DNA of 34,571 nucleotides from Candidatus Woesearchaeota archaeon (GCA_043803105.1 JAZDKJ010000007.1:1-34571); one strand, 5' to 3'. Counted from the stretch's first letter, positions 13,023 to 30,757 are shown. The notes: generated by a model from the letters alone, not told the origin. Numbers and translations: made by a program.

Positions 13023-13290
13023 GGGGCTGTAGTGTAGCTTGGACAGAACAAGCTTGGTCTTGCTCTGGAGATACTATCACTCACGCTTGGGGAGCAATCC
13101 CAGAATGCGTGCAACCGGAGTTCGAACAGCTTTTTTTGCTTCGCAAAAACCCAAAGAAAACCGAGGGTTTTCTTGGGCCCATCCGAATTGTTGAATTCGG
13201 ATAGGGAACCTGGGAAAAGGCTTTTTTCCTCGACGGAAAAAAGAACGGTTTTGCAGCGTCAAGAGAAGCTCGAAAGTCTTCGCAGCCCCA
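13023..13290 (+). tRNA. tRNA-Pro(GGG) with three introns (D-loop about 13043-13073; 37/38 at 13093-13105; 59/60 at 13127-13276)
   Basis: The spliced 74-nt sequence GGGGCTGTAGTGTAGCTTGG|CTATCACTCACGCTTGGGG|TGCGTGCAACCGGAGTTCGAA|TCTTCGCAGCCCCA folds as a complete cloverleaf. BHB-type motifs occur at the junctions. The D-loop boundaries are the least certain. Confidence 0.9.
13127..13276 (+). other. 150-nt structured BHB intron at tRNA position 59/60
   Basis: Strict BHB: TTCG/CGAA central helix, AA|C and AG|T bulges, outer helix AGCTTTTTTTG/CAAGAGAAGCT, plus several internal hairpins. Confidence 0.85.
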
Positions 13291-13669
13291 TTTTTTTTCT
13301 ACCAATTGGTGACTAGCAAAAGAGCTTAAGTCAAAGCTTGACAGTTTCTTCGAGTCGTAGGGTATGTCTTCAAACAGCATATTTCCTGCAAAAAAGAATA
13401 ACCTATTTTCTCTTGAACTCTTCTAGCCAATGTCCATAAAGTCTTAACAGATTGCCCATACAGGTCGTTATGGCTTGCCATTATAGTTATCATATTATAT
13501 AAATGATACCGAGGTAAAAGAGGTCTGCACATTCTCAGTGGATAAGATTATTACGCCGAATCTAACTGGCCTGCGACGAGATGATAGATAAGAAAGATAT
13601 TTCTGAATACAAGTTATTTCCTTTTGACAAGAAGAATTGAATCTCAACAAATAACTTCTTATTTATTGA

Positions 13670-14143
13670 TTATTTCTTGACGCGATTTAGTTTGAGAAGC
13701 TTTTCGCTAGTAATGTTCAAAAAGACGTTCTGTTCCATTCGCGCAAGATATTCTGACGCTATCGTGATGGTACCGAGGCCTTTCACGGAAGATTTGACGA
13801 CAAGGTCCTGAATAGTGTTGGTCTTTGGCACGAGATTGACCGCTTCCACAGTGCCAATCTTTCCACCTTTAACTCCAAACACAGTCATTCCTTTCAAGCG
13901 AAAAGAGGGTTCGATGGTAAGAAACACGGCGTATTTCGTAACTTCTCGAATGTGGTCTGACCCAATAAGAAATCCTTTTCGCATAAAACCTTTATCGACG
14001 GATATACCCACAACTTTCAAGGTCTTTGGATGGATATAGAGTTTGTCGCTAACTCCAAGAAACGCTCCTCGCGAATCTATAACATCCTTGCCAAGCACAT
14101 CTTCCGATGTTATAACGCCCTTAATGCTGGGATTTTCGGTCAC
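13670..14143 (-). CDS. PRC-barrel domain protein (two domains)
   Basis: DVLGKDVIDSRGAFLGVSDKLYI and LKGMTVFGVKGGKIGTVEAV. Confidence 0.85.
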   Translation of the reverse strand: MTENPSIKGVITSEDVLGKDVIDSRGAFLGVSDKLYIHPKTLKVVGISVDKGFMRKGFLIGSDHIREVTKYAVFLTIEPSFRLKGMTVFGVKGGKIGTVEAVNLVPKTNTIQDLVVKSSVKGLGTITIASEYLARMEQNVFLNITSEKLLKLNRVKK

Positions 14144-14597
14144 GTTTTAGTTGCTCGTAAGTTTTTGAAAGAATGATGGAAGTTCCGAGGTGTTCGATGT
14201 CGGCGTGGCGCACCTCCATTGTTCGGAACCATCCGCGGCTGACAGTGAGTGACGCAACGCGATTTGTTTCACTAACGCGGTGCACTTTTATTGCAGTGCC
14301 CACTTTTTTGCCATCGTGACTGACCACTGTGCATCCTTCAAAGAGCGTTGCAGGTTCAATCGAAAGAATGACGGCTTGTGGTGTCATCACATTAACGTAG
14401 GTGATACAGATATACTTGTCTTCTTTGAAGAATTTTCGAACAACGATTCCTTCAACATAGTATTTTTTTTTGTTGAAGTGAACAGCCTTTACTCGTCCGA
14501 GCACTGCGCCAGATTTTGTGAGTACTCGCTTGCCAAGAATATCTTGTATTCGAAGGGTTTCATCAACGGCACTTGCTTTCTCAACAAACACTTCCAT
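14121..14597 (-). CDS. PRC-barrel domain protein (two domains)
   Basis: DILGKRVLTKSGAVLGRVKAVHF and FEGCTVVSHDGKKVGTAIKV. Confidence 0.85.
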   Translation of the reverse strand: MEVFVEKASAVDETLRIQDILGKRVLTKSGAVLGRVKAVHFNKKKYYVEGIVVRKFFKEDKYICITYVNVMTPQAVILSIEPATLFEGCTVVSHDGKKVGTAIKVHRVSETNRVASLTVSRGWFRTMEVRHADIEHLGTSIILSKTYEQLKRDRKSQH

Positions 14598-14651
14598 GAA
14601 AATAGTTGAATGGTAGGGTGTTTAAAAATGCTTTGGTGTTTGCAAAAGTAA

Positions 14652-15260
14652 TTAGTGCACAAAGTAAACAAAGGTCGCAATTGCAATGAGTTTCACAATA
14701 ACTGCTAGCATAAGAAAAAAGAAGAGTCGTTTTGCATTGTATTTTACGATACCAAGACTGAAACTGAGCACGTCGCTTGGGGCCGGAACAAGATTCATCA
14801 GAATGATAGCATACGCGCCATACTTATTTACTTTTCTGCGTATTGCATGTATTTTCCTTGTCGAGAGAAGATATACTACTTGTTGACTGAGTTTCCAGCC
14901 AGTGAGATAGCTAATTGCACTTCCAATCACGAAACCAAGGAGCGCAGCTGCCATCGAGAGAAGGACAGGATTGCCTTGCTTTAAGCCAATATAGAATGTG
15001 AGTTCAACCGGAGCAGGAACAGGAATGAACACTATACCGCTTATGATACCAAGAATAAACTGCTTGAGTGGCGTGATGTCGTGCACGATGTCGGGCGTAT
15101 AGCGTGAATAAAATGATTCTGAACTAACTTTACCGTTCACACGCCCATAGTTTACTGCTGCAATAACAAGGCCGCTTATTATAAGAACAATCATCACAAA
15201 TAACGCAACAACTCGTTTCACTTGATTGTTGGAGGTTTCGTGAACAAACGTGTGTGACAT
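14652..15260 (-). CDS. DedA/VTT (SNARE-associated) family membrane protein
   Basis: FIPVPAPVE, GSAISYLTGW, KYGAYAIILMNLVPAPSDVLSFSLGIVKY. Confidence 0.85.
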   Translation of the reverse strand: MSHTFVHETSNNQVKRVVALFVMIVLIISGLVIAAVNYGRVNGKVSSESFYSRYTPDIVHDITPLKQFILGIISGIVFIPVPAPVELTFYIGLKQGNPVLLSMAAALLGFVIGSAISYLTGWKLSQQVVYLLSTRKIHAIRRKVNKYGAYAIILMNLVPAPSDVLSFSLGIVKYNAKRLFFFLMLAVIVKLIAIATFVYFVH

Positions 15261-15343
15261 ACACGAGCGCAGCCCTGGTCGTATTTAATTATGTTGATTT
15301 GCCTAATGTGCAAAGTGTTATTTTAGATAGAAGCGGCGCCTAA

Positions 15344-15392
15344 TCTTCGCAGCCCTATTATTTTTCTACCAATTGGTGACTAGGCAAAGAGC
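15344..15392 (+). repeat. attR-like copy of the tRNA-Pro 3' end and trailer
   Basis: TCTTCGCAGCCCTATTATTTTTCTACCAATTGGTGACTAGGCAAAGAGC versus 13277-13325. Confidence 0.88.
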
Positions 15393-15452
15393 ATGAATTT
15401 TTTCCAAAGATTTATAAGCGGGGACCAAGCGAGAAAATAGTTGGTGATAAGT

Positions 15453-17201
15453 ATGAAAAAAGCATTTCTGTTTTTATTGACATCTTTGATTTTAGCGAGC
15501 ACAGTTCTGGCTGCTTCAGTGACTATAGGGCCTGATGGGATGGGTGCCTATAATTCGTGGACCAACCAAGGCCGCACAGCAGCAACTGAATGGCAGTGCG
15601 TTAACGAGGCAACTGCGAACACAAGCGATTATGTTTACACCAACGGAAAGAACACAAAGGAAAGCTTTAGCTACTCTAACTCAGGCCAGAGTGGGTATAC
15701 GATTAACAGCGTAACCTTGTATTATTATGCAAAATATTACAGCAGCTCAAAATACAAGATACAGCCGATGATCAGAAGCGGCGGGACAAACTATCTCGGA
15801 AATACATTAACATTAACTTCAGGCTATGCATCTTATAACCAACAGTATAACACAAACCCTGCAACAGGAAGCGCCTGGACTTGGGCACAGGTTGATGCGC
15901 TTGAGGCTGGAATGAATTCTTACAATTCAAACAATGGCGGTGGTTATGTGGCCCAGACCTATGCGGTGGTTGCCTATACCATCCCAGATTCTTGCAGCGA
16001 TACAGACGGAGGAAACAATATTGTTATCCTAGGTACAACTTCAGGCATAAAAAATGAAGCATCTTACAGCGACACCGACTACTGCGTGGACAGCTCTAAT
16101 GTGTTTGAATACTATTGCTCAGGAACGCAAGAAACAAGCCAACAGCAAAGCTGCGGAACTGATGGTTACGGAAGCAATTATTGCCTTGGCAACGCGGTGT
16201 ATCACAACTACACTGACTATTCCTGCAATGCGGGAGCATGCGCTCATACGCACACACCTGAACTTGTCCAGACCTGCGGAGCCGACCAGTATTGCTACTA
16301 TGGAACTTGCCGTTACTCTGACACATGCAGCGACACTGATGGAGGGGACGTACCCTTGGTTTTTGGAACCGTTTCCGGGTATGCTTATGGTTATCCATAC
16401 AGCGTTGACGATAAGTGCATGGGAGACAGCAACCTAAATGAGACTTACTGTTATGGAACTCAAAAGGCAATACACTTCCAAAGCTGTGGAACTGATGCAT
16501 ACGGCAGCGCTTACTGCAGCGATGATGATGTGTACAAGGATTACACTGACTATTATTGCAGCGGAGGAGTGTGCGACTCAGACACCACACCAGAACTGCA
16601 GCAAGACTGCGGAACAGATGGATACGGAGCAAACTTCTGTGTTGGGACCCAGGTCTACCATAACTACACTGATAATTATTGCAGCAGCGGAGCGTGCGGC
16701 TATTCAATCACGCCAGAGCTTGTTGAAACATGCCTGACAGGGCAGTACTGCAGCAGCGGAGCATGCCATTGGACAAACTCTTGTAGCGACACAGACGGAG
16801 GAGTGATGCCCAACATATTTGGGACTGTGAGCGGCTATTACAGCGATGCATCTTACAGTTATGATGACTTCTGCAATACAAGCGCTCAGTTGAAGGAGTA
16901 TTGGTGCAATGGTGCCTTGGCTAAACTGTCCAGTCAGACCTGTTCTTATGGCTGCGCTGACGGCAAATGCAATCCTGCACCTGATTCATGCACTGACACA
17001 GACGGTGGTATAGTACCCCTCATAGGCGGAAACACCTACGGATATTATCAGGGCAATTTTTATTATAACCCTGACCTCTGCTTGAACGGCACAGCCTCCA
17101 TGATGACAGAGTGGTATTGTTCTGGGACCAGCAGCAACAGCCAGGATATCGACTGCAATTCCAACGGAACAACGTATTGCACACAGGGCCATTGCGCCTA
17201 A
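15453..17201 (+). CDS. secreted Cys-rich repeat protein (CxDTDGG repeats)
   Basis: Signal peptide, GGTGA SD, four CxDTDGG modules and three CGTDxYG..C...VY..YTD..C..G.C....TPEL...C modules. Confidence 0.9.
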   Translation: MKKAFLFLLTSLILASTVLAASVTIGPDGMGAYNSWTNQGRTAATEWQCVNEATANTSDYVYTNGKNTKESFSYSNSGQSGYTINSVTLYYYAKYYSSSKYKIQPMIRSGGTNYLGNTLTLTSGYASYNQQYNTNPATGSAWTWAQVDALEAGMNSYNSNNGGGYVAQTYAVVAYTIPDSCSDTDGGNNIVILGTTSGIKNEASYSDTDYCVDSSNVFEYYCSGTQETSQQQSCGTDGYGSNYCLGNAVYHNYTDYSCNAGACAHTHTPELVQTCGADQYCYYGTCRYSDTCSDTDGGDVPLVFGTVSGYAYGYPYSVDDKCMGDSNLNETYCYGTQKAIHFQSCGTDAYGSAYCSDDDVYKDYTDYYCSGGVCDSDTTPELQQDCGTDGYGANFCVGTQVYHNYTDNYCSSGACGYSITPELVETCLTGQYCSSGACHWTNSCSDTDGGVMPNIFGTVSGYYSDASYSYDDFCNTSAQLKEYWCNGALAKLSSQTCSYGCADGKCNPAPDSCTDTDGGIVPLIGGNTYGYYQGNFYYNPDLCLNGTASMMTEWYCSGTSSNSQDIDCNSNGTTYCTQGHCA

Positions 17202-17202
17202 A

Positions 17203-17223
17203 TTTTTTCTTTTTCTTTTTTCT
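17203..17223 (+). terminator. oligo-T archaeal terminator
   Basis: TTTTTTCTTTTTCTTTTTTC immediately follows the stop codon. Confidence 0.55.
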
Positions 17224-17257
17224 AGTAAGTTATTTATAGCCATTCAAGGAAATACTA

Positions 17258-17830
17258 TTGATGGTAGGCAATCCGCCCAAATTCAACAAATATGATGTTC
17301 TAAGATGCTTGCTGGGAATACAAAAGGATATTTCAAGACTTGATCTTGGAAGATTATTGGAGCTTGGAGAGGGTACGGTGAGAACTATACTTGACATACT
17401 AAAAATTAAGAGGCTAATTGACTCAGACAGGCAAGGGCACACCCTTACTGCCAAAGGAAAGCAGACAAAGGAGAACCTTGCGGCAGAATTCGAATTTATT
17501 GAAATAGCTAAGACAAAGGAACTCGGAGGAAAGCACACATTTGCATTCAAGATAAGGAATGAGAGAAGACTCGAGGTAGGGTACAAGCAAAGAGACATCG
17601 CAATCAAGAACGGGGCAGAAGGGGCTTTACTAATGGTCTATGACAAAGGATTGAGGATGCCTGGAATAAGCAGGTTTGATGTTCAGCTATACTCCTCAAT
17701 ATTCGAGCTGACAGATTATGACATACTGGTTGTATGCTCTGCAGCCACAAGAAGAATGGCAGAATGGGCGGGGATTGCTGTGGCTGAATCGCTGAACGGC
17801 AAGGTGAAAAGGATATTGAAGATGTTCTAA
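17258..17830 (+). CDS. winged-helix protein (DUF4443/DUF2111-like)
   Basis: SRLDLGRLLELGEGTVRTILDILK...GHTLTAKG wHTH, followed by QRDIAIKNGAEGALL. Confidence 0.75.
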   Translation: MMVGNPPKFNKYDVLRCLLGIQKDISRLDLGRLLELGEGTVRTILDILKIKRLIDSDRQGHTLTAKGKQTKENLAAEFEFIEIAKTKELGGKHTFAFKIRNERRLEVGYKQRDIAIKNGAEGALLMVYDKGLRMPGISRFDVQLYSSIFELTDYDILVVCSAATRRMAEWAGIAVAESLNGKVKRILKMF

Positions 17831-17835
17831 ATTTG

Positions 17836-19287
17836 CTAGTAACTTTTACCGAAGTAAACCATAAAAGATGCTTCCTTGCCGCAGTAAACGCACTTCTTGC
17901 CCTTGATGCTTGGCTGTTTCAATGGGATGTTAAGCGCCTTTGCACCACCAGCCTTGTCCTTGATCAAATCCTCGCACTCAGAATTATCGCAGTAAGGCGC
18001 AAGGACTATCTTATTATTGTCGACGGCATTCTTTAATTGCTCAAAGTTTGAAGCCTCAACTACGGTGTCGTGCATCAACTTTTTTGCTTTGTCAAAAAGG
18101 CTCTTTTGAATGTCGTCCAAAACCTCCTTGACTGTGTCTTTCAAGTCGGCAATTGGGACTGGCTGCTTCTTGGAAGTGTCTCGCCTGACTAACATTACCT
18201 GCCTCTTCTCGATGTCTTTTGGGCCGATCTCAAGGCGCAAAGGAACTCCCTTGAGCTCCCACTCATTAAATTTCCAGCCGGCAGAATATTCGTCGCGGTC
18301 GTCTAAGATAACGGAGAACTGTTTTAAGGCATCTTTAAGCTCTTTGGCTTTCTTAAGGGTGGCTTCCTTAGTTTTTTCGAAGATAATAGGAACAATGACA
18401 ATCTGGGTTGGGGCAAGCATTGGAGGCAAAACAAGGCCTTTATCATCACTGTGTACTGCAACCATGATGCCTATCATCCGTGTTGTAATGGCAAAAGTGT
18501 TCTGGTAGGCAAACTCCAGATTCTCAGCCTTGTTGATGAATTTGATATCGAAAGCTTTAGCAAAATTCTGGCCATCATGGTGGAAATCAGGTCCTTGAAT
18601 CGCTTTGCCGTTAGGAAGCACATGCTCAAATGAAATTGTGTATTCTGCCCCTGCAAACTTTTCCTTGTCAGTCTTCCTGCCTATGAGAGCGGGCAGGGCC
18701 ATGTAATTCTCGGTCACATCCTTGTAGATGCTGATGATTTCGTCAGCTTCTGCTTCTGCCTCTTGCTTTGAAGCAAAGACCGTATGTCCTTCATTCCAGA
18801 GGAACTCTCTTGTCCTTAAGAAAGGCACAGGGTGCTTGAACTCCCACCTGACGACATTGTTCCACTGGTTGAGCCGCAAGGGCAAGTCACGCCAGCTCCT
18901 GATCCATTTGGAGAAGCTCTCGTACATTATGGTCTCTGAAGTAGGCCTTATCGCCAATCTTTCATTGAGCTTTGTGTCACCTGATTCAGTCACCCAGGCA
19001 ACCTCAGGGCTAAAGCCTTCCATGTGCTCAGATTCCTTTTTCAAGAGCCTTTCAGGGATAAAAAGAGGGAAATAACAATTCCTTATGCCAGATTTGCGGA
19101 AGTCAGAGTCAACCTTTGACTTAATCTTTTCCCAGATATCATAGGAGTCAGGCCGAAAGACAATGCAGCCTGAGACAGAGCTATAATCTGCCAAACCAGA
19201 CTTGATGATGAGCTGCTGATACCACTCAGAGAAATCATCAGACTTCTTTACTGTTATGCCAACTTCAGACTCTTCCTTTTCAGCCAT
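17836..19287 (-). CDS. proS: prolyl-tRNA synthetase, archaeal/eukaryotic type
   Basis: DDFSEWY, AIRPTSET, FLRTREFLWNEGHT, C-terminal zinc domain ending FGKSY. Confidence 0.98.
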   Translation of the reverse strand: MAEKEESEVGITVKKSDDFSEWYQQLIIKSGLADYSSVSGCIVFRPDSYDIWEKIKSKVDSDFRKSGIRNCYFPLFIPERLLKKESEHMEGFSPEVAWVTESGDTKLNERLAIRPTSETIMYESFSKWIRSWRDLPLRLNQWNNVVRWEFKHPVPFLRTREFLWNEGHTVFASKQEAEAEADEIISIYKDVTENYMALPALIGRKTDKEKFAGAEYTISFEHVLPNGKAIQGPDFHHDGQNFAKAFDIKFINKAENLEFAYQNTFAITTRMIGIMVAVHSDDKGLVLPPMLAPTQIVIVPIIFEKTKEATLKKAKELKDALKQFSVILDDRDEYSAGWKFNEWELKGVPLRLEIGPKDIEKRQVMLVRRDTSKKQPVPIADLKDTVKEVLDDIQKSLFDKAKKLMHDTVVEASNFEQLKNAVDNNKIVLAPYCDNSECEDLIKDKAGGAKALNIPLKQPSIKGKKCVYCGKEASFMVYFGKSY

Positions 19288-19390
19288 GCAAAGCCTTAAT
19301 TGTGTGCTTTATAAAAATGTTTTGACTGGCACAACCAATAATGTTTTTAAGTAATACGAGATTCGCATTGTCAAGGAAATTGGAATCAAA

Positions 19391-19708
19391 ATGAAAGAGC
19401 AACTACAACCAATTGATTTGTCAACCGCAACTATAGATCCCGAACTTGTTAAGGAGCTGGAAAATATAGTATTTGGAGATTTTTGCGCCCGTCGTCATGT
19501 GGCAGACTACTTTGGCATGGTTCCTATTAGGTATGTAAACGATAAAGCAATAGAGGTTGCCCTGAGCTATGAACCTACAAAAAGGCAAGCAGATAATATT
19601 ACTAAAGTCCTGAGCAATCTTACAGGCAGGGAGAAAATCATCTTTAGGATTGCCTCTCAAGAGCAAATAGACCAGGCAATTAGCAAATACTACTCTCTTC
19701 TTTTGTGA
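19391..19708 (+). CDS. stand-alone GspE/PilB N-terminal (T2SSE_N-like) domain protein
   Basis: VADYFGMVPIRYVNDKAIEVALSYEP...LSNLTGREKIIFRIASQEQIDQAISKYY matches the typical pattern of this domain. Confidence 0.7.
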   Translation: MKEQLQPIDLSTATIDPELVKELENIVFGDFCARRHVADYFGMVPIRYVNDKAIEVALSYEPTKRQADNITKVLSNLTGREKIIFRIASQEQIDQAISKYYSLLL

Positions 19709-19729
19709 ACCAAAAATAAAGAGAAAAAA

Positions 19730-20260
19730 TTATCTCTTGTTCCCGAAATAAAAGAACTTATCCAAAGCAACATCATCAGACTTATACGAGCCTGACCTTG
19801 GATGATCAACAAGGGCTGGCCTCGGCTGCTCCATTGGCGAGGTGAATCCCCTAGGATGCTGCACAACCTCTGGCTGAGGCATAGGTATGACTGTGTCCTT
19901 TGTGCTGTCAATCTCCTCAGGCTTGATGTGCTTTGGCGCCTGCTGCTTTATTCCCTCAACAGCCTGCCAGAGCTGCTTTAACTCAGACTTCAAGCTCTCA
20001 TGGCTTTCTGATACCCTTTTGAGCTCGTTGTTCAACCCTTCAGAGGCATTAGCCAGGTGGTGGCGGATGCGCTCATCAATAAGCTGGCGCACCCGATCAC
20101 CCTCCTTAGCTAAAACTACTGATGCGGTTGTTTCGGGAAGGCCTTCCTCATACACATTGCCTGCCATCGCTACAGCATCGTCAAAACTGGAGGCTGCACC
20201 TGTCCTCGTCAACTCCTTAATCATGAAGTTGAGCTTCTTGGTCTGTTCTATATCAATCAT
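19730..20260 (-). CDS. hypothetical coiled-coil protein directly downstream of ftsZ
   Basis: Starts 10 nt after the ftsZ stop. Coiled coil, Pro-rich linker and an aromatic C-terminal tail DVALDKFFYFGNKR. Confidence 0.75.
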   Translation of the reverse strand: MIDIEQTKKLNFMIKELTRTGAASSFDDAVAMAGNVYEEGLPETTASVVLAKEGDRVRQLIDERIRHHLANASEGLNNELKRVSESHESLKSELKQLWQAVEGIKQQAPKHIKPEEIDSTKDTVIPMPQPEVVQHPRGFTSPMEQPRPALVDHPRSGSYKSDDVALDKFFYFGNKR

Positions 20261-20270
20261 CTTGGAGCAC

Positions 20271-21302
20271 CTAAACTGTTCGAATGCCCAATTCGCTGTG
20301 GAAACTCTTGGCCTTCTGAAAGCTCTCTTTGCTTGAAGGCTTGCCCAAAATCCACGGTGACTTCACTCCTGTGATGATGGTCATGACGCAAAGTTTGCCC
20401 TTCATCGCGTCATTGACACGTGCGCCCCAGATTACATTAGCATCCTCGTCAAGGTTCTTTGTCACTGCATTTCCTATGTCCTCAACCTCATCAAGGGTCA
20501 TGTCAGGCCCGCCTTCAATGTGAATCAAGGCGCCTGTAGCACCTACATAGTTGATGTCGAGCAGCGGGTTTGATAGCGCACCCCTCACAGCCTCCTCAGC
20601 CCTATTAGTTGTGTCTGAGAAGCCTACTCCAATGGCAGCTACTCCGCCTTCGCTCATTATCGCTTTCACGTCAGCAAAGTCGAGATTTACCAGGCTTGGG
20701 ACTGCAATAGTCTCGACAATACCCCTAATCATTGTTGAAATAAGTTCGTTCGCAACAGCAAAAGCCTGCTGAACTGGCAGATTTCCTGCAATGTTGACAA
20801 GCCTGTTGTTGTCTATCACTATAACGGTGTCTGCAACCTGCCTTAACTGCTGAAGCCCAAACTCTGCCTTGTCTATCCTTGCCCTTTCAATATTGAAAGG
20901 CATAGTAACTGTTCCTATAACAATAGAGCCTGATTCCTTGGCAATCTTTGCAATAACTGGTGCGGCTCCTGTTCCAGTGCCACCGCCCATTCCTGCGCAG
21001 ACAAAGGTCATGTCGCAATTCTTCAGAAGCTCCCTTATCTCGTTAAGGTTCTCTTGAGCTGCTGCAGCTCCCTTGTCTGGGAAACCACCGCATCCGAGGC
21101 CTCTTGTTACATTTTTTCCTATCAAAAACTTGTAATCTGCATTAGTGATCTCCAGGTGCTGCTTGTCGGTATTGCACGCCAAAATCTTTGCTCCCTGCAC
21201 TCCTTTCCTGTAGAGCCATGAAACCATATTGCATCCAGCGCCACCGCAGCCGATAACTTCGATATTTGCTGTTCCGACCTGGAGTTCGAATCCTTCTACC
21301 AT
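20271..21302 (-). CDS. ftsZ: cell division protein FtsZ (FtsZ2-like)
   Basis: GGGTGTGAAP tubulin motif; PFNIERARI and PSLVNLDFAD resemble the FtsZ2 clade. GAGGTG SD precedes ATG 21302. Confidence 0.97.
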   Translation of the reverse strand: MVEGFELQVGTANIEVIGCGGAGCNMVSWLYRKGVQGAKILACNTDKQHLEITNADYKFLIGKNVTRGLGCGGFPDKGAAAAQENLNEIRELLKNCDMTFVCAGMGGGTGTGAAPVIAKIAKESGSIVIGTVTMPFNIERARIDKAEFGLQQLRQVADTVIVIDNNRLVNIAGNLPVQQAFAVANELISTMIRGIVETIAVPSLVNLDFADVKAIMSEGGVAAIGVGFSDTTNRAEEAVRGALSNPLLDINYVGATGALIHIEGGPDMTLDEVEDIGNAVTKNLDEDANVIWGARVNDAMKGKLCVMTIITGVKSPWILGKPSSKESFQKAKSFHSELGIRTV

Positions 21303-21919: not shown

Positions 21920-22032
21920 TATTCTTCTTGCGAACCAGATACATTATTTGATTATGGATTTACGCTGCGGCCAGAGAATCCTGCAGAATCACGTAGGAAA
22001 ACTTATAAAGAAGCAGACCAAAATCAATCCAC

Positions 22033-22206: not shown

Positions 22207-22208
22207 TT

Positions 22209-22487: not shown

Positions 22488-22577
22488 GACTTGTGGGTTT
22501 GATGCCAACATGCTTTGTGTAGAAAGTCCTGAATAACCTTGGCTTTTTACACAGATATAATATCGGTAACCACCTCA

Positions 22578-22928: not shown

Positions 22929-23039
22929 ATTTTAACCTGCCTGTAATTGTATTTGTTGCTGGATTATTTAAACATTTGGTGTCCAATTATAGGACTTTTT
23001 ACGCAAGAGTCACGTAATACACAAAGCCATGCCAACAGT

Positions 23040-23150
23040 AATCTTTATAAACCCCCTATAAACTCTTGAGCATACCAGTGACTGATGACGGCTGAAGAGG
23101 CCGGAAAGAGGTATAATTTCTGAATTTACCTCTTAATCCTCACGGAGGTT
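23040..23150 (+). promoter_or_regulatory. rpl7ae promoter and 5' UTR with a box C/D K-turn/K-loop motif
   Basis: TTTATAAA at 23044-23051; TGATGA (23083-23088) followed by CTGA (23092-23095); AAGAGGTA/TACCTCTT hairpin before the GGAGG SD. Confidence 0.6.
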
Positions 23151-23156
23151 ATGAAA

Positions 23157-23492
23157 ATGGCAGATGAATTAATTGAAAAAGTGTATGAAGCCATCGAGCT
23201 AGCAAAATCAACAGGAAAACTGAAGGTCGGAACCAACGAAGTGACCAAGATGATAGAAAGGGGCACAGCCAAGTTTGTGGCTATAGCCAAGGACGTCAGC
23301 CCTCCAGAGATAACAATGCACATACCTCTTCTATGCAACGAGAAAGACATACCGTGTGCAACAGTAACAAGCAAGGAAGAGCTTGGTTCAGCAGCAGGTT
23401 TAACTGTACCTACAGCAAGCGTGGCGATCATACAAGAAGGAGAAGCAAAGAATCTCATCAAAGAGCTTAAGGACAAACTCAAGGCAAAATGA
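23157..23492 (+). CDS. rpl7ae: 50S ribosomal protein L7Ae
   Basis: [37 protein letters not shown] 23151 is an alternative start. Confidence 0.97.
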
Positions 23493-23896
23493 AACCGGAC
23501 CAAACAGAGGCCAAGGCGCCTGAGGCAAAAACCCAGAAGGCAAAGCCCGCAGAGGGAAAACACACAAAGCCTGAACAAGCCAAAACTGACCAACCAAAAC
23601 AAGAGCAAAGACGAGAGGCACCAAAGCAACCAACAGAAGAGGTCAAGAGAGGACCTCAAGTGACTTTCTCGATGGCGACTCCGGCAAGGGTTGAAGAGAT
23701 CATAGGAAGGACGGGAATGAGGGGAGAGGCAGTTCAGGTAAGGGTAAAAATACTTGATGGAAGGGACGCCAACAAGATCATAAGGAGAAATGTCAAAGGC
23801 CCAGTACAAGTGGGAGACATACTCATGCTAAGGGAAACAGAGTTTGAAGCAAGACAACTTTCACGCGGAGGCCGAGGCGGACTAGCCTACGGATAA
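23489..23896 (+). CDS. rps28e: 30S ribosomal protein S28e with an N-terminal extension
   Basis: [25 protein letters not shown]...[23 protein letters not shown]. Confidence 0.95.
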
Positions 23897-23899
23897 AAA

Positions 23900-24079
23900 A
23901 TGGCAAAATGCAGTTTTTGCGGAGAAACACTCAAGCCTGGAACAGGCAAGATGTATGTAAAGAAAGACGGAAAGATTTTGTATTTTGATTCGAACAAATG
24001 CGAGAAGAACATGATAAAGCTTGGGAGAAACCCGAGAAAATTCAAATGGACCAAGAACTACCAGAAAGGTGGAAAATGA
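23900..24079 (+). CDS. rpl24e: 50S ribosomal protein L24e
   Basis: Not in the track (59 aa): [51 protein letters not shown]. Confidence 0.96.
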
Positions 24080-24648
24080 AAGATTTGCTGGAAAAAACAT
24101 TCGTTGCTGTGAAGCACGACGGAGTACAGCGAGGACTAGTTGGAGAAGTGATAAAGAGGTTCGAGCAAAGAGGCTTAAGGCTTGCTGCAATAAAGATGGT
24201 GCACCCTGACAATGAGATGGCAAAAAAGCACTATCCGATGACTGAGGAATGGATAAAGAACACAGCCGCAACAACGAGAAAAGCCTGGGAGGCAAAGGGC
24301 ATCAAGATGAAAGAGACAGACCAGGAGATATGCAAGCGCATCAACTCATGGCTGTTGAAGTATCTCACTGAAGGCCCAATGGTGGCGATGGTCTGGGAAG
24401 GAATCCATGCAATAGAGATGGGAAGAAAGATCGTCGGCACTGCAGGACCAAAGAATGCTGCTCCAGGAACAATAAGAGGGGACTATAGTATTGACAGCTA
24501 TGAATTAGCAGACCAAAAGCAAAGGGCACTAAGGAACATAGTCCACGCATCAGGAAACAAAGAAGAGGCTGCAAACGAAGTAAACCTCTGGTTCAAAAAG
24601 GACGAAATGCTTGACTATTATAGAAAAGATTGGGACATAATGCATTAA
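24076..24648 (+). CDS. ndk: nucleoside diphosphate kinase
   Basis: [43 protein letters not shown] overlap with rpl24e. Confidence 0.96.
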
Positions 24649-24657
24649 GGTGAAACT

Positions 24658-26829
24658 ATGGCAGAGAAGATGTCTGAAAAAGTGAAGAGGATCATGAGCA
24701 ATCCTGCACAGATAAGAAATATTGCTACATCAGCGCACATCGACCACGGAAAAACAACCTTCACTGACAACCTGCTTGCGGGAGCGGGAATGATGTCTGA
24801 AGAGCTTGCTGGAAAGCAGCTAGTCATGGACTTTCACGAAGATGAAAAGTCAAGAGGCATCACAATAGACACAGGAGCGGTGTCAATGGTGCACGTCTAC
24901 GGGGGAAAGGAGTACCTCATCAACCTGCTTGACACTCCAGGACACGTAGATTTTGGCGGAGAAGTCACAAGGGCAATGAGAGCAGTTGACGGAACCATAG
25001 TCCTTATCGACGCAGTGGAAGGGATAATGCCGCAAACAGAGACAGTATTAAGGCAGTCATTGAGGGAAAAGGTAAAGCCAGTCCTGTTCATAAACAAGGT
25101 TGACAGGCTGATCAAAGAATTGCAGCTCACCCCGGAGAAGATGCAAGAGAGATTCGTAAAGATAATCACAAACGTCAATGAACTAATAAGAGAGATTGCA
25201 CCACAAGAAATGAAAGAGAAATGGCAGGTAAACGTACAGGATGGAAGCGTCGCATTCGGGTCAGCGTTCCACAACTGGGCGCTATCAGTACCATATATGA
25301 AGCAGAAAAACATCACATTCAAGGAAATAATCGACGCATACCTCGGAGGGGATTACAAGCCGTTGGCAAAAAAAGCACCATTGCACGAGATTGTGCTTGA
25401 CATGGTGGTAAAGCAATTGCCAAACCCGGCAGACGCGCAAAAATACCGGATTCCGAAAATCTGGCACGGAGACCTTGAATCAGTTGAGGGCAAATCACTG
25501 ATAAATTGCGACCCTAAAGGGCCTTTATTTTTTGTCATCACAAAGATAGTAGTTGACCCGCAGGCAGGAGAGATTTCTGCGGGAAGGATATTCTCAGGAA
25601 CTGTGAAGAAAAGCCAGGATGTCTACCTAAACAGGCAGAAGCAATACTCGAAGATACAGCAGGTCTATATCTACAATGGGCCGAAAAAGGAGATTGTGGA
25701 TGAGGTACCTTGCGGAAATATCATAGGCATCGCAGGGGTAAAGTCTTTTGCAGGCGAAACAGTCACTGAAAATCCAACAGAACCATTTGAGAAGATACAG
25801 CACATATTCGAGCCAGTAATCACAAAAGCGATTGAGGCAAAAAGGCCAAGCGACCTGCCAAAATTAATCGAGGTGCTAAGACAAGTCGGCAAGGAAGACC
25901 CAACAGTACAGATAGAGATCAATGAAGAGACCGGAGAGCACCTTTTGCATGGCATGGGAGAGCTTCACCTCGAAATAATTGAGAACAGGATAAAGACCGA
26001 AAAACATGTTGAAGTCCAAACCTCAGAGCCAATCGTGGTTTACAGAGAAGCAATACAAAAACTCTCCCAAGAGGTAGAGGGAAAAAGCCCGAACAAACAC
26101 AACAAATTCTATTTTATCACTGAGCCGTTAGAAGACAACGTGCATGCAGCGATAAAGAATGGCGACATACCAGAGATGAGAATAAAGAAGAAAGACCAGG
26201 CACTTGTTGACAAATTTGTTGACTTAGGCTACGATTCAAAAATAGCATCCAAACTAAAAGACATATACCACGGAAATATACTCATTGACGGAACAAGGGG
26301 GCAGGTCCACATAGGGGAAGTAATAGAATTGATATTGGACATGTTCGAAGATGTTATGAGGAAAGGTCCGCTGGCAAGAGAGCCCTGCCTAAAGGTCAAG
26401 GTCACTTTAACAGATTGCAAACTGCACGAAGACGCAATCCACAGAGGCCCAGCGCAGGTCTATCCTGCAGTAAGGGAAGGAATGAGGGGTGCGATGATGA
26501 CAGCAAAGCCAGTACTCTTCGAGCCACTGCAATTACTGCACATAGAAGCACCGGTAGAATACATGGGAGAGTTAAGTAAGCTTGTAGGAAACAAGAGGGG
26601 ACAATTGCTTGAGATGAACCAGGAAGGAAGCCTGGTAATCATAAAGGCAAAGCTGCCGGTAGCAGAAATGATAGGATGGAGCTCAAACCTACGGAGCGCC
26701 ACAGGCGGCAGAGGATCAAGCTCGCTAATAGACCAGAGTTTCGAGAAGCTCCCAGATGAACTGCAGGCTAAAGTGCGGGCACAAATCGTGTCCAGAAAGG
26801 GCTTGAGCGAGGCGCAATTGGGTGCGTAG
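24658..26829 (+). CDS. fusA: translation elongation factor aEF-2
   Basis: AHIDHGKTT, RGITI, DTPGHVDF, NKVD and the diphthamide motif HEDAIHRG. Confidence 0.98.
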   Translation: MAEKMSEKVKRIMSNPAQIRNIATSAHIDHGKTTFTDNLLAGAGMMSEELAGKQLVMDFHEDEKSRGITIDTGAVSMVHVYGGKEYLINLLDTPGHVDFGGEVTRAMRAVDGTIVLIDAVEGIMPQTETVLRQSLREKVKPVLFINKVDRLIKELQLTPEKMQERFVKIITNVNELIREIAPQEMKEKWQVNVQDGSVAFGSAFHNWALSVPYMKQKNITFKEIIDAYLGGDYKPLAKKAPLHEIVLDMVVKQLPNPADAQKYRIPKIWHGDLESVEGKSLINCDPKGPLFFVITKIVVDPQAGEISAGRIFSGTVKKSQDVYLNRQKQYSKIQQVYIYNGPKKEIVDEVPCGNIIGIAGVKSFAGETVTENPTEPFEKIQHIFEPVITKAIEAKRPSDLPKLIEVLRQVGKEDPTVQIEINEETGEHLLHGMGELHLEIIENRIKTEKHVEVQTSEPIVVYREAIQKLSQEVEGKSPNKHNKFYFITEPLEDNVHAAIKNGDIPEMRIKKKDQALVDKFVDLGYDSKIASKLKDIYHGNILIDGTRGQVHIGEVIELILDMFEDVMRKGPLAREPCLKVKVTLTDCKLHEDAIHRGPAQVYPAVREGMRGAMMTAKPVLFEPLQLLHIEAPVEYMGELSKLVGNKRGQLLEMNQEGSLVIIKAKLPVAEMIGWSSNLRSATGGRGSSSLIDQSFEKLPDELQAKVRAQIVSRKGLSEAQLGA

Positions 26830-26912
26830 GCGTTATCGATAACTTTATAAACAAATGCGGTATCCCAAACATCGTTTCGCGTTACTAAAAACGAGCAAAA
26901 CTGGAGGTCAAA

Positions 26913-28193
26913 ATGGGAAAGGATAAAACTCACATCAACCTCGTGTTCATCGGACACGTAGATCACGGGAAGTCCACGACAGTTGGAAGGCTGCTATACG
27001 ACACTAAAAATGTGGACGAGCAGACAATGAAAAAGCTCAAGGAGAAAGCACAAGAGCTCGGAAAGGCAGGATTTGAATTCGCCTTTGTCATGGACAACCT
27101 GAAGGAAGAGCGAGAGAGAGGAGTCACAATAGACCTTGCGCACAAGAGATTTGACACACCAAAATACTATTTCACAATAATTGACGCACCAGGCCACAAG
27201 GACTTTATCAAGAACATGATAACGGGTGCGTCACAAGCAGACGCTGGTGTGCTTGTAGTTGCAGCAAACGACGGCGTAATGGCACAGACAAGGGAACACG
27301 TATTCCTTGCAAAAACACTCGGGGTTGACCAGCTCATAATCGCAGTCAACAAGATGGACATGAAGAACTATGACCAGAAAGTGTTCGAGCAGGTCAAGGC
27401 AGATGTCTCTGCACTACTCAAGACCGTCAATTACAAACCAGAGAACATACCCTTCATTCCAATTGCATCGCTTCACGGCGAGAATGTTGCAACAAAGAGC
27501 ACAAAGATGCCCTGGTATACTGGACATACCCTGCTTGAGACATTGGACACACTAAAAGAACCTGAAAAGCCAACACAGCTTCCTTTGAGGCTTCCGCTCC
27601 AGGATGTGTATAACATCACAGGAATTGGCGTGGTACCAGTAGGAAGAGTAGAGACAGGAGTGCTAAAGGTTGGAGACAAGGTCGTTATAATGCCTGGCAG
27701 GGAAGGGAAGGGAGTGCATGGGGAAGTAAAGACCATAGAGATGCACCACGAACAGATGACAAAGGCAGAGCCAGGAGACAACATTGGCTTCAACGTAAGG
27801 GGAGTGGGCAAGAAGGACATAGCGCGAGGAGACGTGCTTGGCCATGAGGACACGCCACCCCAGGTTGCAGTCGAATTCATCGCAAACATTATAGTATTGA
27901 ACCATCCAACAGTTATCACCGTAGGCTATACGCCAGTGTTCCACATACACACAGCACAGGTAGCCTGCCAGATAACTGCAATACAAAAGAAACTAAATCC
28001 AACAACTGGAGAAGTGCTGCAGGAAAACCCAGACTTTATCAAGAATGGCGATGCGGCCATCGTGAAAGTAAAACCGATGCACCCACTCTGCATTGAAAGG
28101 CAGAAAGACATTCCACAGATGTCACGGTTTGCTGTAAGGGATTCAGGAGCAACCGTAGCAGCGGGAATGTGCATTGAAATAGTCGGCAGGTAA
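26913..28193 (+). CDS. tuf: translation elongation factor aEF-1 alpha
   Basis: [30 protein letters not shown]. Confidence 0.98.
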
Positions 28194-28257
28194 AAACTCA
28201 CTTGCCGTCCATGGTAAACCGGGTTTATCATGGTGCACACAACTCCAGCCACACAAG

Positions 28258-28569
28258 ATGCAAAGGGCTAGAATAAAAATCGCAAGCACAGAGATAGGAA
28301 AGGTCAACGAAGTGTGTGACTACATAAAGGACATAGCCACAAAGACTGGAGTTGAAATAAGGGGTCCTATTCCTTTACCTACTAAGAAGCTTAGGGTGAC
28401 CACTAGAAAGAGCCCTTGCGGAAACGGAAAGGCGACCTGGGATAGATATGAAATAAGGGTGCACAAGAGGCTTGTTGATTTAGGGATTGACGAACGAGCA
28501 CTTCGTCTTGTTATGAGAGTGCCTATACCAGAAGGGCTTAACATCGAAATAGAAATGATTGAAGTCTAG
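28258..28569 (+). CDS. rpsJ: 30S ribosomal protein S10 (uS10)
   Basis: [27 protein letters not shown]. Confidence 0.97.
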
Positions 28570-29231
28570 ATAAGTTCTAGTTTGACTAATTCGTTCTTTA
28601 ACTGTTTGCTGTTCTTGTAAAGGATTACGTGCATGCCCATCGATTTTGCAGCCTTCACGTTCTCAAGAACATCATCTATAAATAATGCTTCGTCAGGCTT
28701 GTAGCCTTCTTCAATGAGCACATGCTGGAAGCCTTTTCGTGTTGGCTTTCTTAAGCCGATTTCTGGTGAGTTGTAAGCCTTATCAAAAATCTCAAAGAGG
28801 TCTTTCCTTTTCCTCCAGTATTCTGTAATCTCAGGTTCCTGATTTGAAAAACAGATAACTCTGGCTTTGTTCTTCATCCTGTTTATGATTGTTAGCACAT
28901 TATGGTCAAGTCCGGTGGATGTTCTTATGTAGGCAGACAGATGTTTCGCAATGAGCTTAGTTGGCTTGTGGCCTTTCCCGAGCTTTTTGGCAATTTGTCC
29001 GTACATCTCAAGAAGGCTGCTTTTACCAACCTGGACTCTTGGAAGATATCCCTTAGTTAGCTTTGTGAATTGTCTGACAGAAATCCCTAACTCTTCAGCT
29101 ATGGCCCTGTCTATCAAATGACCTTTCCACAAGACAAGAACCTTACCCAAATCAAAAATAACTAGCTTTATCACAGAACTGTGTTCATCTACCTTGTTTA
29201 TAAAACTTACTCCGGGCTTGAAACTAGTCAA
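28566..29231 (-). CDS. HAD-superfamily hydrolase
   Basis: [18 protein letters not shown]...NVKAAKSMG. Confidence 0.9.
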
Positions 29232-29581
29232 TAACCTGAATTGCTAAAGGTGGAGCCAGTAAATGGCATGTAGTTTGGCATTGCGTACCTGGTGCAGACA
29301 TTTGTCTTATGCCTTAATGTTTTCTTGCCTGCCCGACAGTCAATTTGGTCGCCACCAGCATATACACATTGTCCCTGCCTGCTTCCTGTATGAATCCAAA
29401 AAGGGCTCATTGCACCATAGTTCTGGCAGGGTGACAGATTGTTGTTCAAAGGCACAAAATCTGGCATCTGATAAGTAGAGTACGAGGTATAACCTGAACC
29501 GTACGAATATCCGTCGTATTGTTGGGCCATCACAGGCATTGCTGCCAGAGCAAGAACAAACAAAAAAACGTACTTCTTCAT
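29228..29581 (-). CDS. small secreted hypothetical protein
   Basis: Signal peptide MKKYVFLFVLALAAMPVMA, GGAGGTGA SD, four Cys. Confidence 0.75.
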   Translation of the reverse strand: MKKYVFLFVLALAAMPVMAQQYDGYSYGSGYTSYSTYQMPDFVPLNNNLSPCQNYGAMSPFWIHTGSRQGQCVYAGGDQIDCRAGKKTLRHKTNVCTRYAMPNYMPFTGSTFSNSGY

Positions 29582-29682
29582 CCACGTCACCTCCAAGAAA
29601 ACCTAAGTGCAAGCAAGACTTTCTAATATTTAATGGTTGCGGAAGGTCAAGCTATTTAAACGAATTGGGGTTTTTTCTGGCT

Positions 29683-30501
29683 ATGGAGCTAAACATTGAA
29701 ACCAGGACTATTGCCGTCATGCAACAGGAACTTAGGGATGAATTAGAAGGAAGCCTGGAGGAGATAAAATTTATAGTCGCGAATGCAAAGGACCTTGCAG
29801 GCCTGGAGAGTGAACTTGAGCCATTCTATCTTGACCTGCAGCCAACAGAAAAAGACAAGGCTATATTCAAAGCGTCGTTGGGCTTATCTTACAAGATCCA
29901 TGTACAGCGTCTTGAACAGGCAAGAGACAGCGGGCACTCAGCCATTATACATCCGCTGCAGGTGGGATACATCAGTCAGGAGCTTGGGCTTTCGCCGATG
30001 CATGTTGGCATAGACTTCTTGCATGATGCAGTAATAGAGAATGATTATAAGCATAGGATAGAAAACATGAAGATGGTTATCGAAGTGTTCAATAGTATTA
30101 ACAAGGGCCTTGGAAATTATATGAGGTATTACCTCATTGCTTTGAGTGCAAAGCCCAATAATGACCCAATTAAGAAGAAGGATGACCTAATGCAAAAAAT
30201 TGTTCGGATGGGCTCAAATGCAAATAGGCAGGGCCTATTCCCGGGAGAAGATACACTTGCAAATTTGCTTATACACAAACAGTGCGACAATGTGGGCAAT
30301 CTGTATGACTTAAGGTTCATGAGCGGTAAAAACGGAATTGAAAGTGTTGTCAGGCAAGCGAACAAGCTGAGGATATCTGACAAATACCTTTCGCTTGTGC
30401 GAGAGAAGGGCATTAACATGATCGGAAAGTCCGGCCTGGATTTTAACGAGTACACCCAGATATTAGTCAAAGAGCATAAAGAAAGGCTCCACTTACAGTA
30501 A
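29683..30501 (+). CDS. HD-domain protein resembling the RelA/SpoT hydrolase domain
   Basis: RDSGHSAIIHPLQV...LHDAVIEND...KQCDNVGNL parallels RxSGxPYIxHP...LHDxxED...KLADRxxN. TATTTAAA lies about 25 nt before ATG 29683. Confidence 0.7.
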   Translation: MELNIETRTIAVMQQELRDELEGSLEEIKFIVANAKDLAGLESELEPFYLDLQPTEKDKAIFKASLGLSYKIHVQRLEQARDSGHSAIIHPLQVGYISQELGLSPMHVGIDFLHDAVIENDYKHRIENMKMVIEVFNSINKGLGNYMRYYLIALSAKPNNDPIKKKDDLMQKIVRMGSNANRQGLFPGEDTLANLLIHKQCDNVGNLYDLRFMSGKNGIESVVRQANKLRISDKYLSLVREKGINMIGKSGLDFNEYTQILVKEHKERLHLQ

Positions 30502-30535
30502 ACTTATTAAACCTGACTTCTCCTCTTTGGTTTGC

Positions 30536-30757
30536 GCCGTGGTGGCACAACCTGGTACTGCGCAAGCCTGGAACCTACGTTCGAAAGCTTGTGGCCGCAA
30601 GGCTTTCCCGGACAGCTTTTTTCCATAGGAAAAAACCTGGGAAAAGACATCGCTTGTTTAAGCGAGTTTGTCTTTTTTCATGGTATTCGAGAGAATGGCT
30701 GGGGGAATTCAAAGGTCTTGGGGCAACGCCCCGGACAAGAAAGTCCGGGCCACGGCG
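30536..30757 (+). tRNA. tRNA-Ser(GGA) with three introns (37/38 at 30574-30585; 53/54 at 30612-30707; 59/60 at 30714-30743)
   Basis: The spliced 84-nt sequence GCCGTGGTGGCACAACCTGGTACTGCGCAAGCCTGGAA|AGCTTGTGGCCGCAAGGCTTTCCCGG|TTCAAA|TCCGGGCCACGGCG forms a cloverleaf with a long variable arm and G73. A TTATTAAA promoter lies about 25 nt upstream. Confidence 0.9.

Follow-up and report, generated by a model that had tools for sequence, protein, structure and literature searches.

Transposed groups of transfer RNA (tRNA) introns were reportedly described in the Thermoproteales by Fujishima et al. (Mol Biol Evol, 2010). As summarized in a 2014 review (PMC4090602), related introns have spread between Thermoproteales tRNA genes by a transposition mechanism that was then 'still unknown', and, as outlined in two reports on DPANN archaea (PMC5829648; PMC3239211), these organisms have non-canonical introns in the D-, anticodon-, and T-loops as well as splicing endonucleases of broad specificity. 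The summary given for Caldiarchaeum subterraneum describes a tRNA-Thr gene disrupted by a recombinase-bearing 1.8-kb element (PMC3293823), and that for Pyrobaculum calidifontis a MITE-like element (miniature inverted-repeat transposable element) resembling C/D box small RNAs (PMC6009581). A 2026 preprint on Asgard archaea states in its outline that 'how they arrive remains open'. Here we analyzed a 34,571-nt contig of a Candidatus Woesearchaeota archaeon (JAZDKJ010000007.1; this whole stretch is hereafter designated the window), in which one tRNA-Pro and one tRNA-Ser gene carry introns that share a structured core of 34 nt. The comparisons described below indicate that these two introns are probably copies of a small, non-coding, structured mobile element, which would spread as DNA, be spliced out by the host, and encode no protein.

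The identical core type was found at tRNA positions 37/38, 53/54, and 59/60, in 16S ribosomal RNA (rRNA), and outside genes. Near-identical introns thus occupy tRNAs of different identity and position, which is the kind of observation that marks the transposed groups of the Thermoproteales: the core of the Ser intron is identical at 33/33 bases to the beginning of a 59/60 intron of a different tRNA (C6:187267-187299), and the Pro intron is identical at 85/92 aligned bases to the 93-nt intron of a tRNA with the acceptor strand GGGGACG (C12:181546-181638). The 53/54 intron present here in tRNA-Ser (GGA) is absent from the corresponding gene of the congener G001, whose assembly is fragmentary and whose locus is not syntenic.

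An earlier note on this DNA had drawn attention to three motifs common to the two introns, whose positions were borne out by reading of the window and by pattern scans. ACAGCTTTTTT occurs at 13126 and 30612 (two matches against a shuffle mean of 0.11, with 1/100 shuffles reaching two); the 13-mer AACCTGGGAAAAG at 13207-13219 and 30634-30646 (two matches in the window, with none in any of 100 shuffles); and the hairpin GCTTTTTTCC-N3-5-GGAAAAAA at 13220-13242 and 30615-30635 (two matches, 0/100 shuffles). The 13-mer is present six times in the 1.56-Mb genome, against about 0.05 occurrences expected from uniform-frequency arithmetic, and the motifs co-occur at about twenty further genome sites; they are therefore far above background, and covariation is also present, as described below. 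A fuzzy scan for the 13-mer, which gave 150 matches at up to two substitutions and was uninformative, was replaced by nhmmer and a covariance model of the core (designated R1). Of the limits that the note had given, 13127 is where the Pro T-loop intron begins and 30707 is where the Ser 53/54 intron ends.

The architecture differs in part from what had been proposed. The motifs had been placed outside the bulge-helix-bulge (BHB) core of the splice sites, but they are not independent of it, because the 5' CAGC forms part of the helix next to the 5' bulge: in Pro, that bulge has C13127 as its third base and AGCUU:AAGCU forms the intron-side helix beside it, and in Ser, as read by hand, CAGC pairs with GCUG adjoining the 3' splice site. 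The swapped order of hairpin and 13-mer is literally correct but misleading, since the true counterpart of the Ser hairpin at 30615-30635 is the Pro hairpin at 13130-13149, both lying upstream of the 13-mer, whereas the Ser intron has no counterpart of the further hairpin that Pro carries downstream, at 13220-13242. No shuffling of hairpins needs to be assumed, as the modules are collinear and the Pro intron corresponds to the C12 intron of another tRNA with a 57-nt insertion. Common ancestry, by contrast, stood: both introns belong to a repeat family without open reading frames (ORFs), with covarying pairs and a patchy distribution of the kind expected for a mobile element, strongly concentrated in introns of tRNA and rRNA genes and at the ends of tRNA genes.

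The tRNA-Pro gene and its T-loop intron are composed as follows.

13023-13290, plus strand: tRNA-Pro gene with several introns (268 nt; anticodon GGG by eye).
13127-13276, plus strand: T-loop (59/60) intron, the long form of the element (150 nt; strict hBHBh' motif).
13127-13149, plus strand: 5' part of the core, CAGC and hairpin 1 (U7-GC-UUCG-GC-A5), 23/23 identical to C12:181546-181568.
13150-13206, plus strand: long-form module, a 57-nt insert of two hairpins, which interrupts the core and is a gap in the alignment with the C12 intron.
13207-13219, plus strand: 3' part of the core, the AACCUG closing strand and the GGAAAAG tail; this 13-mer is exact in Ser and invariant in the long-form alignment.
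13220-13243, plus strand: hairpin 2 (GCU6CC-UCGAC-GGA6G), downstream of the core, from the pattern scan and homology.
13262-13276, plus strand: 3' splice half from the strict BHB scan, with AAGCU (pairing with AGCUU at 13128-13132), CGAA (pairing with the T-loop UUCG), and the bulge AG↓U.

Downstream of this intron follow the 3' strand of the T-stem (CTTCG), the acceptor strand CAGCCCC, the discriminator A, and a T-run, and a perfect 7/7 acceptor complement, GGGGCTG, lies 104 nt 5' of the intron; removal of the intron restores the T-arm CGGAG-UUCGAAU-CUUCG together with the 7/7 acceptor stem. ARAGORN calls a tRNA after in-silico removal of 13127-13276 and a segment of the D-region, a call that leaves the anticodon unfixed, and the isotype was read by eye because ARAGORN is too permissive on the spliced sequence for the D-loop intron and the anticodon. 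The BHB comprises an outer helix of 5 bp (the T-stem), a central helix TTCG/CGAA of 4 bp, the bulges AA↓C and AG↓U, and an inner helix of 8 bp, and the intron has a folding energy of -59.4 kcal/mol (z -5.3 versus shuffles). In the C12 relative, the T-loop reads UUCA and the intron block UGAA, a compensating change with respect to UUCG/CGAA of Pro. The 57-nt insert that distinguishes the two introns lies between hairpin 1 and the AACCUGGGAAAAG block. Hairpin 1 aligns with hairpin 1 of four other long-form copies; the 57-nt module is homologous in C6:521476, C8:7981, C6:36804, and C6:303953, with compensating changes in both of its hairpins (A3 alignment), and hairpin 2 is homologous to C12:181582-181605, inside a block identical at 45/47 bases. 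R1 does not match the Pro intron as one unit, since the core is split there.

Separately, the last 14 bases of the tRNA-Pro gene and about 35 nt of its downstream flank (13277-13324) are repeated 2 kb away at 15344-15392, and these repeats bracket three minus-strand genes, two of them encoding PRC-barrel proteins and one a VTT-domain protein. This is a gene-bearing insertion with a flank duplication of about 49 nt.

The tRNA-Ser gene was read by comparison with the isoacceptor genes of G001, G143, and G096 and with 56 metagenomic copies, and contains the following features.

30536-30757, plus strand: tRNA-Ser gene (anticodon GGA) with three introns.
About 30574-30585, plus strand: canonical 37/38 intron, by eye only.
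30612-30707, plus strand: 53/54 intron of 96 nt, an insertion relative to the uninterrupted CCCGG-TTCAAA of G001.
30613-30646, plus strand: 34-nt core, consisting of CAGC, hairpin 1 (U6CC-AUA-GGA6), and CCUG-GGAAAAG; the best R1 match.
30708-30713, plus strand: six-base exon UUCAAA (T-loop 54-59) between two introns, from the alignment with G001, G143, and G096.
30714-30743, plus strand: 59/60 intron of 30 nt, without the core (no R1 match there).

The core of the 53/54 intron scores 58 bits with R1 (expect value, E, 2.9e-13), and intron removal yields CCCGG-UUCAAAU-CCGGG, which is uninterrupted in relatives. The folding energy of this intron is -34.3 kcal/mol (z -4.7 versus shuffles). Its BHB was read by hand as the exon helix UCCC/GGGG, the bulges GG↓A and AA↓U, and the helix CAGC/GCUG, a parse that the strict scan did not return. 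Beyond the gene, at a distance of 360 nt, lies a tyrosine recombinase gene (PF00589, E 9e-18; 31119-32375), and after it a DNA methylase gene (33626-34387). This looks like an integrated element at tRNA-Ser that runs to the contig end; a search of the genome for another copy of the tRNA-Ser ends gave none.

The 34-nt core can be written as N-AGC, a U-run/A-run hairpin, and CCU-N'-GG-R-AAA. Thirteen short copies from this genome align to CAGC-U-run-stem-loop-stem-A-run-CCUGGGAAAA, with 103/103 stem cells paired and four of the eight pairs changing on both sides; the covariation score was reached by none of 500 shuffles. Among 53 matches from this genome and the order, the closing pair N1:N30 is Watson-Crick in 50 (CG 35, AU 8, GC 6, and UA 1), and the hairpin therefore includes the very first position of the element. 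The pairs A2:U29 and G3:C28 are conserved in 52/53 of these matches each, and a C4/C27 mismatch in 49/53. Longer copies add one to three hairpins to the core, whereas the smallest insert (C5:47110) consists of the 34-37-nt core alone.

The tail of the core, GGRAAAR, mirrors the purine strand of the stem. This was analyzed with 100 matches (53 of A2 and 47 of A4), of which 11 off the fixed register were dropped, leaving 89 evaluable and 83 distinct cores. In the 89 matches, a U at position 5 goes with A at position 33 (46/47) and a C at position 5 with G (38/41), and this is kept in nine cases of the C/C/G class, where C at position 26 cannot pair with C5. Position 37 likewise follows the pair 9:22 in the 83 distinct cores. 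Both rules hold together in 60/83 cores, as compared with a mean of 21 and a maximum of 35 in 10,000 shuffles, and each of the four combinations of stem states shows its own matching tail. No Watson-Crick partner for the tail was found within the element, in the complementary strand, or across the circular junction. Purine mirror repeats are known to form intramolecular purine-motif triple helices, or H-DNA, and such triples are poorly documented for RNA. As a hypothesis only, suggested by the sequence pattern, the mirrored purines of the tail could lie antiparallel to the purine strand of the stem in U-A/A and C-G/G triples. Like H-DNA, the core presents a pyrimidine strand, a loop, a purine strand, a linker, and a mirrored purine strand with linked T-A/A and C-G/G changes; unlike H-DNA, it involves five positions only, two of which vary.

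A search of this genome with R1 at E<0.01 gave 17 matches. By eye, eight of them lie in tRNA introns, one lies in a 16S rRNA intron, and six abut a tRNA gene end with a duplicated stub; the remaining two are an insert of about 36 nt consisting of the core only, at a non-tRNA site with a 19-nt exact flank repeat, and a match inside an ORF that is probably false. No more than 200 nt separate 4/17 matches from a tRNA that Rfam had called independently, against a random mean of 0.09 and with none of 20,000 randomizations reaching four, and the model finds the core in this genome, in the same order, and in other orders of the class.

Each of the nine T-loop copies has a T-stem strand and an acceptor strand behind it, with a 7/7 complement of the latter 80-148 nt upstream, and its removal restores a canonical mature sequence; T-loop introns end with four bases complementary to the T-loop of the host tRNA (CGAA/UUCG, UGAA/UUCA, and UGGA/UCCA). 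The last of these pairings belongs to tRNA-Pro (CGG) at C6:403687-403790 (minus strand), whose T-loop, UCCAAAU, has a C at position 55, which is normally invariant, and in which the intron block has changed to the matching UGGA. The tRNA-Pro (CGG) of G001 has UUCAAAU and no T-loop intron, whereas the gene of this genome has a core-bearing one. The 16S rRNA gene (C8:150105-151702; L070 806-2403) gives a full-length small-subunit match of 1598 nt against a model of 1478 positions; its intron is located at GGAUUAGAUA↓C and begins with the core, and its junctions were read by hand as UUAG/CUAA and CAGC/GCUG. At C6:303868-304034, two forms of the element have been inserted successively behind one tRNA, resulting in three copies of the tRNA 3' end. 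As for orientation, 18 of 22 copies of this genome are on the strand of positive GC skew (±30 kb), including five of six that are antisense to the neighboring tRNA; this bias is suggestive but confounded by gene orientation and two tandem copies.

At E≤0.001, R1 matches were obtained in 30/150 other genomes of the order and, when only high-quality genomes were counted, in 23/115 including this one. A class-level sample gave 22/151, again including this genome, with 19 of the positive genomes labelled as other orders and one family positive in 6/7. When 29 loci of the order were inspected by eye, 21 were in or against a tRNA gene: seven T-loop introns, two other introns (Ser 53/54 and the variable region), seven duplicated stubs of tRNA ends, three copies directly after a tRNA 3' end, and two antisense copies abutting a tRNA; of the others, one is associated with a duplicated start of a protein gene, and seven are unclear. 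Among 47 matches in other orders, nine were called T-loop introns by a script, and several have upstream flanks that resemble an anticodon loop (by eye only). The core is located at the canonical 37/38 site of tRNA-Ser (GCU) in G222 and at 59/60 of tRNA-Ser (GGA) in G143. The core-rich relative G199 has seven matches on one 956-kb contig. Tandem arrays of the core with 65-130-nt spacing were also observed (G143:C6:11824-12215, G034:C48:17307-17565, G056:C12:9507-9636, and G210:C39:130598-130700), which may have arisen by repeated insertion at one site or by unequal crossing-over between flank repeats.

The 56 metagenomic copies of the tRNA-Ser (GGA) gene, which have an identical 30-nt 5' segment, comprise 40 with intact T-arms, 14 flagged by a script as having 59/60 introns, and two with 53/54 introns (by eye); one of the 14, L158, has by eye an intact arm followed by a duplicated 3' end. 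No core was detected in 55 metagenomic tRNA-Ser loci (39.8 kb), where the best match had an E of 0.45. In some tRNA-Ser genes without T-arm introns (L062 and L063 of G096:C3, L158, L168, and L197), the last 13-17 bases of the gene are duplicated 60-110 nt downstream with no core between.

Duplication of flanks is a recurrent feature of the non-intron copies. An exact repeat of at least 11 nt of the upstream flank is present just downstream in 13/52 copies, as compared with 2/52 for a control segment; exact repeats measure 12-22 nt, those in which mismatches are allowed are longer, and they are seen at both ends of tRNA genes and in either orientation. The idea that the duplicated stub always starts at the 5' end of the RNA, as in an RNA-templated event, was dropped, since the repeats of G082 and G083 run 8-40 nt upstream of the tRNA. 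The comparison with MITEs that had been suggested fits only loosely: it is the 5' hairpin that is conserved, the 3' parts being heterogeneous, terminal inverted repeats are absent, the flank repeats are variable with no target duplication of fixed length, and neither a parent element nor an autonomous partner was seen.

Copies in introns begin exactly at the 5' splice site or one base away from it, and the closing helix forms the intron-side helix of the BHB, so that host endonuclease and ligase could remove the element. From the BHB motifs and a single EndA gene (one PF01974 match of 96.8 bits at C4:37141-37398, in an ORF of 203 aa), we infer removal by the host splicing endonuclease. A plausible course of events would be as follows. 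The element would insert as DNA at new sites, namely tRNA positions 37/38, 53/54, and 59/60, 16S rRNA, and gene ends in either orientation. Copies at which a BHB can form would then persist as introns without target duplication, the gene staying functional after splicing, while other copies would persist where the duplicated gene end leaves one intact gene. Our preferred guess for the insertion is a route via host replication or repair, for example, template switching at structure-forming single-stranded DNA, because of the variable flank duplications, the structure-forming DNA, the preference for tRNA genes, and the lack of any enzyme found. A dedicated transposase or reverse transcriptase seems less likely; some trans-acting enzyme, or an RNA-templated route, is possible. 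A bolder proposal, which we advance tentatively and regard as rather unlikely, is that the core is a complete protein-less mobile unit: its tail would fold on the stem as a short pyrimidine-purine/purine (Y-R/R) triple helix (5/26/33 and 9/22/37), stall the replication fork as single-stranded DNA, and template-switch, with variable flank duplications, into other sites that are prone to structure and strongly transcribed, chiefly tRNA genes, becoming an intron where a BHB forms. Such a triple helix would explain the mirror rule at both sets of positions, and, if true, the proposal would be the first to offer a concrete and testable way in which archaea gain endonuclease-spliced introns.

Several points weigh against the reading of these introns as copies of a mobile element. 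The presence/absence comparison depends on one fragmentary congener, G001 (84% complete, 240 contigs), the only one available, which gave no R1 match; synteny with it was found at neither the Ser nor the Pro locus, and the genes compared are therefore isoacceptors rather than proven orthologous sites. Intron copies have no flanking repeat or target duplication, whereas non-intron copies have duplicated gene ends, and the two classes may therefore arise by different routes. The conservation of the core could reflect a function, in splicing or protein binding, rather than mobility, and the context tallies were made by eye. Both splicing and the excised circles are what we infer from sequence motifs; the strict BHB scan passed Pro only and gave no acceptable parse for 11 other copies tested, whose relaxed motifs were read by hand, and a looser BHB listing was too noisy to use beyond individual rows. 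T-runs of 6-7 resemble archaeal termination signals, and the two introns start with seven T (13131-13137) and six T (30617-30622) on the sense strand, which is awkward for a transcribed intron. As for candidate partners, RVT_1, TnpB/Cas12f-like, and Cas1 domains had no match in this genome, and the pattern CAGCTTTTT-N4-24-AAAAACCTGGGAAAA had none on viral contigs, a weak result for so exact and narrow a pattern.

The possible functional explanation was weighed in its own right, namely that the core is an RNA module, serving as a recognition or folding aid for the DPANN EndA or as a protein site on the excised intron, and is shared through recombination or gene conversion between tRNA genes. 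The location of the core no more than one base from the 5' splice site in all intron copies inspected, the identity of the closing helix with the helix flanking the BHB, and the conservation of the C-C mismatch and the tail across orders would all suit such a module, and the conserved T-arm sequence would favor exchange among T-loop introns. Exchange of this kind does not readily account for the copies outside splicing contexts, that is, antisense behind tRNA 3' ends, at the 5' ends of protein genes (G057 and G187), and at the non-tRNA site, nor for the same core at three tRNA positions and in 16S rRNA; moreover, many introns of the same genes lack the core, including all 16 T-arm introns in the 56 metagenomic Ser genes. 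On this evidence, we consider a purely functional module clearly unlikely. Chance resemblance of low-complexity A/T runs has practically nothing left in its favor: the motifs are short and rich in homopolymers, and 1/100 shuffles gave two ACAGCTTTTTT matches, but the other shuffle tests, the R1 matches, the closing pairs, the mirror rule, and the 39.8 kb of related tRNA-rich DNA without a match below E 0.45 all speak against it, and it is already refuted by covariation and context enrichment.

Two explanations invoke known enzymes. A hairpin repeat of the REP/PATE type, moved on single-stranded DNA by a Y1 (HUH) transposase of the IS200/IS605 type, would agree with a hairpin that has a conserved mismatch and a conserved 5' tetranucleotide, with the presence of one Y1_Tnp gene in the genome (C6:210483-210827), and with the excess of copies on the positive-GC-skew strand (18/22), which would suit a strand-specific mechanism. 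That Y1 gene is, however, flanked by CGCACTTTAGTGCG hairpins unrelated to the core. The unit that contains it (C6:210283-210890; L069 2784-3389) is IS200-like, with a Y1 ORF of 151 aa and CAGxAAxCxCCGCACTTTAGTGCG hairpins on both sides. Y1 matches were found in 15/30 core-positive and 40/120 core-negative genomes of the order, and the core-rich G096 (eight matches, 100% complete) has none. IS200/IS605 elements make no target duplication, whereas flank repeats of 11-22 nt and more are common here, and the stem sequence varies freely; movement by such an enzyme is thus very improbable. We give an equally slim chance to the copies being remnants of integrase-borne elements, with the duplicated tRNA ends as att sites and the introns having acquired their arm sequences secondarily. 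The tyrosine recombinase gene after tRNA-Ser and the repeat of the tRNA-Pro 3' end and flank around three genes are what such elements might leave, and integration into a tRNA gene leaving fragments is documented, according to the summary for Caldiarchaeum (PMC3293823). The repeats, however, differ per site (many tRNAs, both ends, both orientations, and protein genes), and a site-specific system would therefore need a separate att for each. The core-only insert of 34-37 nt and the intron copies without flanking repeats argue in the same direction, and no full-length integrase element with the core at its ends was seen beside the same tRNAs.

The genome that carries these introns (G000) consists of 1.56 Mb in 13 contigs, of which the window is contig C7, and is 96% complete; its EF-2 shares no more than 76% identity with proteins of metagenome-assembled genomes, mostly labelled Woesearchaeota, Nanoarchaeota, or Nanoarchaeia, which makes the organism a DPANN archaeon of this group. 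ARAGORN calls only five tRNAs in the whole genome and none in the unspliced window, and the Rfam tRNA model is above cut-off six times genome-wide and never in the window, which as a whole had no match at E≤1 to 4227 Rfam families. Such low numbers in a nearly complete genome arise because introns hide tRNA genes: most tRNA genes of this genome are interrupted, and nearly the whole set is hidden. A covariance model of the core could therefore help to annotate DPANN tRNA genes. On a separate matter, the EF-2 matches in many relatives (L079, L083-L085, L087-L090, and others) span 2,600-3,000 nt as against 2,172 nt here, and the extra 400-800 nt are perhaps an intein or an insertion.

With regard to known systems, the REP/REPIN-RAYT repeats of bacteria, the PATEs of IS200/IS605, and the Rickettsia palindromic elements are also short, ORF-less hairpin repeats tolerated inside genes. 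The present family differs from them in showing no dependence on Y1, long and variable flank duplications, a free stem sequence with a kept shape, and a link to splice sites. The Pyrobaculum element is likewise a short archaeal repeat that is non-coding and connected with the spread of a class of RNA genes, but that class is another one, and the Pyrobaculum element, as summarized, has terminal inverted repeats and is confined to one genome (PMC6009581). Like the disrupted tRNA-Thr of Caldiarchaeum, copies here leave a tRNA fragment beside the insert and tie intron gain to a mobile element; the 1.8-kb element outlined there encodes a recombinase, whereas the copies here measure 34-150 nt and encode nothing (PMC3293823). 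The multi-intron DPANN genomes have in common with this one a single small EndA gene and tRNA sets that are incomplete in standard predictors, and the reports on them, as far as their summaries go, concern the enzyme and the intron positions, in contrast to the shared mobile intron sequence considered here (PMC3239211; PMC5829648).

The earlier note had seen in this its best candidate for an undescribed system. To be undescribed is true of the family and its core as far as a literature search reached, which found no description of either, supplementary files not being examined; it is not true of transposed tRNA introns as such, which are known from the Thermoproteales. What is new is the placement of the two window introns in one family, the collinear architecture, the rules for the closing pair and the mirror tail, the counts across the order and class, and the 16S rRNA copy. 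One and the same unit is seen in two states, as an intron (at three tRNA positions as well as in 16S rRNA) and as a simple insertion beside duplicated gene ends, and it is patchily distributed across the class; with a short alignable core, a defined 5' end, and dozens of copies per lineage, the question of how BHB introns reach new sites becomes easier to test, and the rule for the mirror tail adds a structural prediction that is new and can be tested directly. The Thermoproteales groups are ORF-less, like this family, and BHB-spliced, as the intron copies here would be, and their gain is thought to occur at the DNA level (PMC4090602). Set against the summary description of those groups, the family reported here belongs to DPANN archaea and extends across a class, and it is distinguished by a 34-nt core with covarying pairs and a mirror tail, by copies in 16S rRNA, and by non-intron copies with duplicated gene ends.

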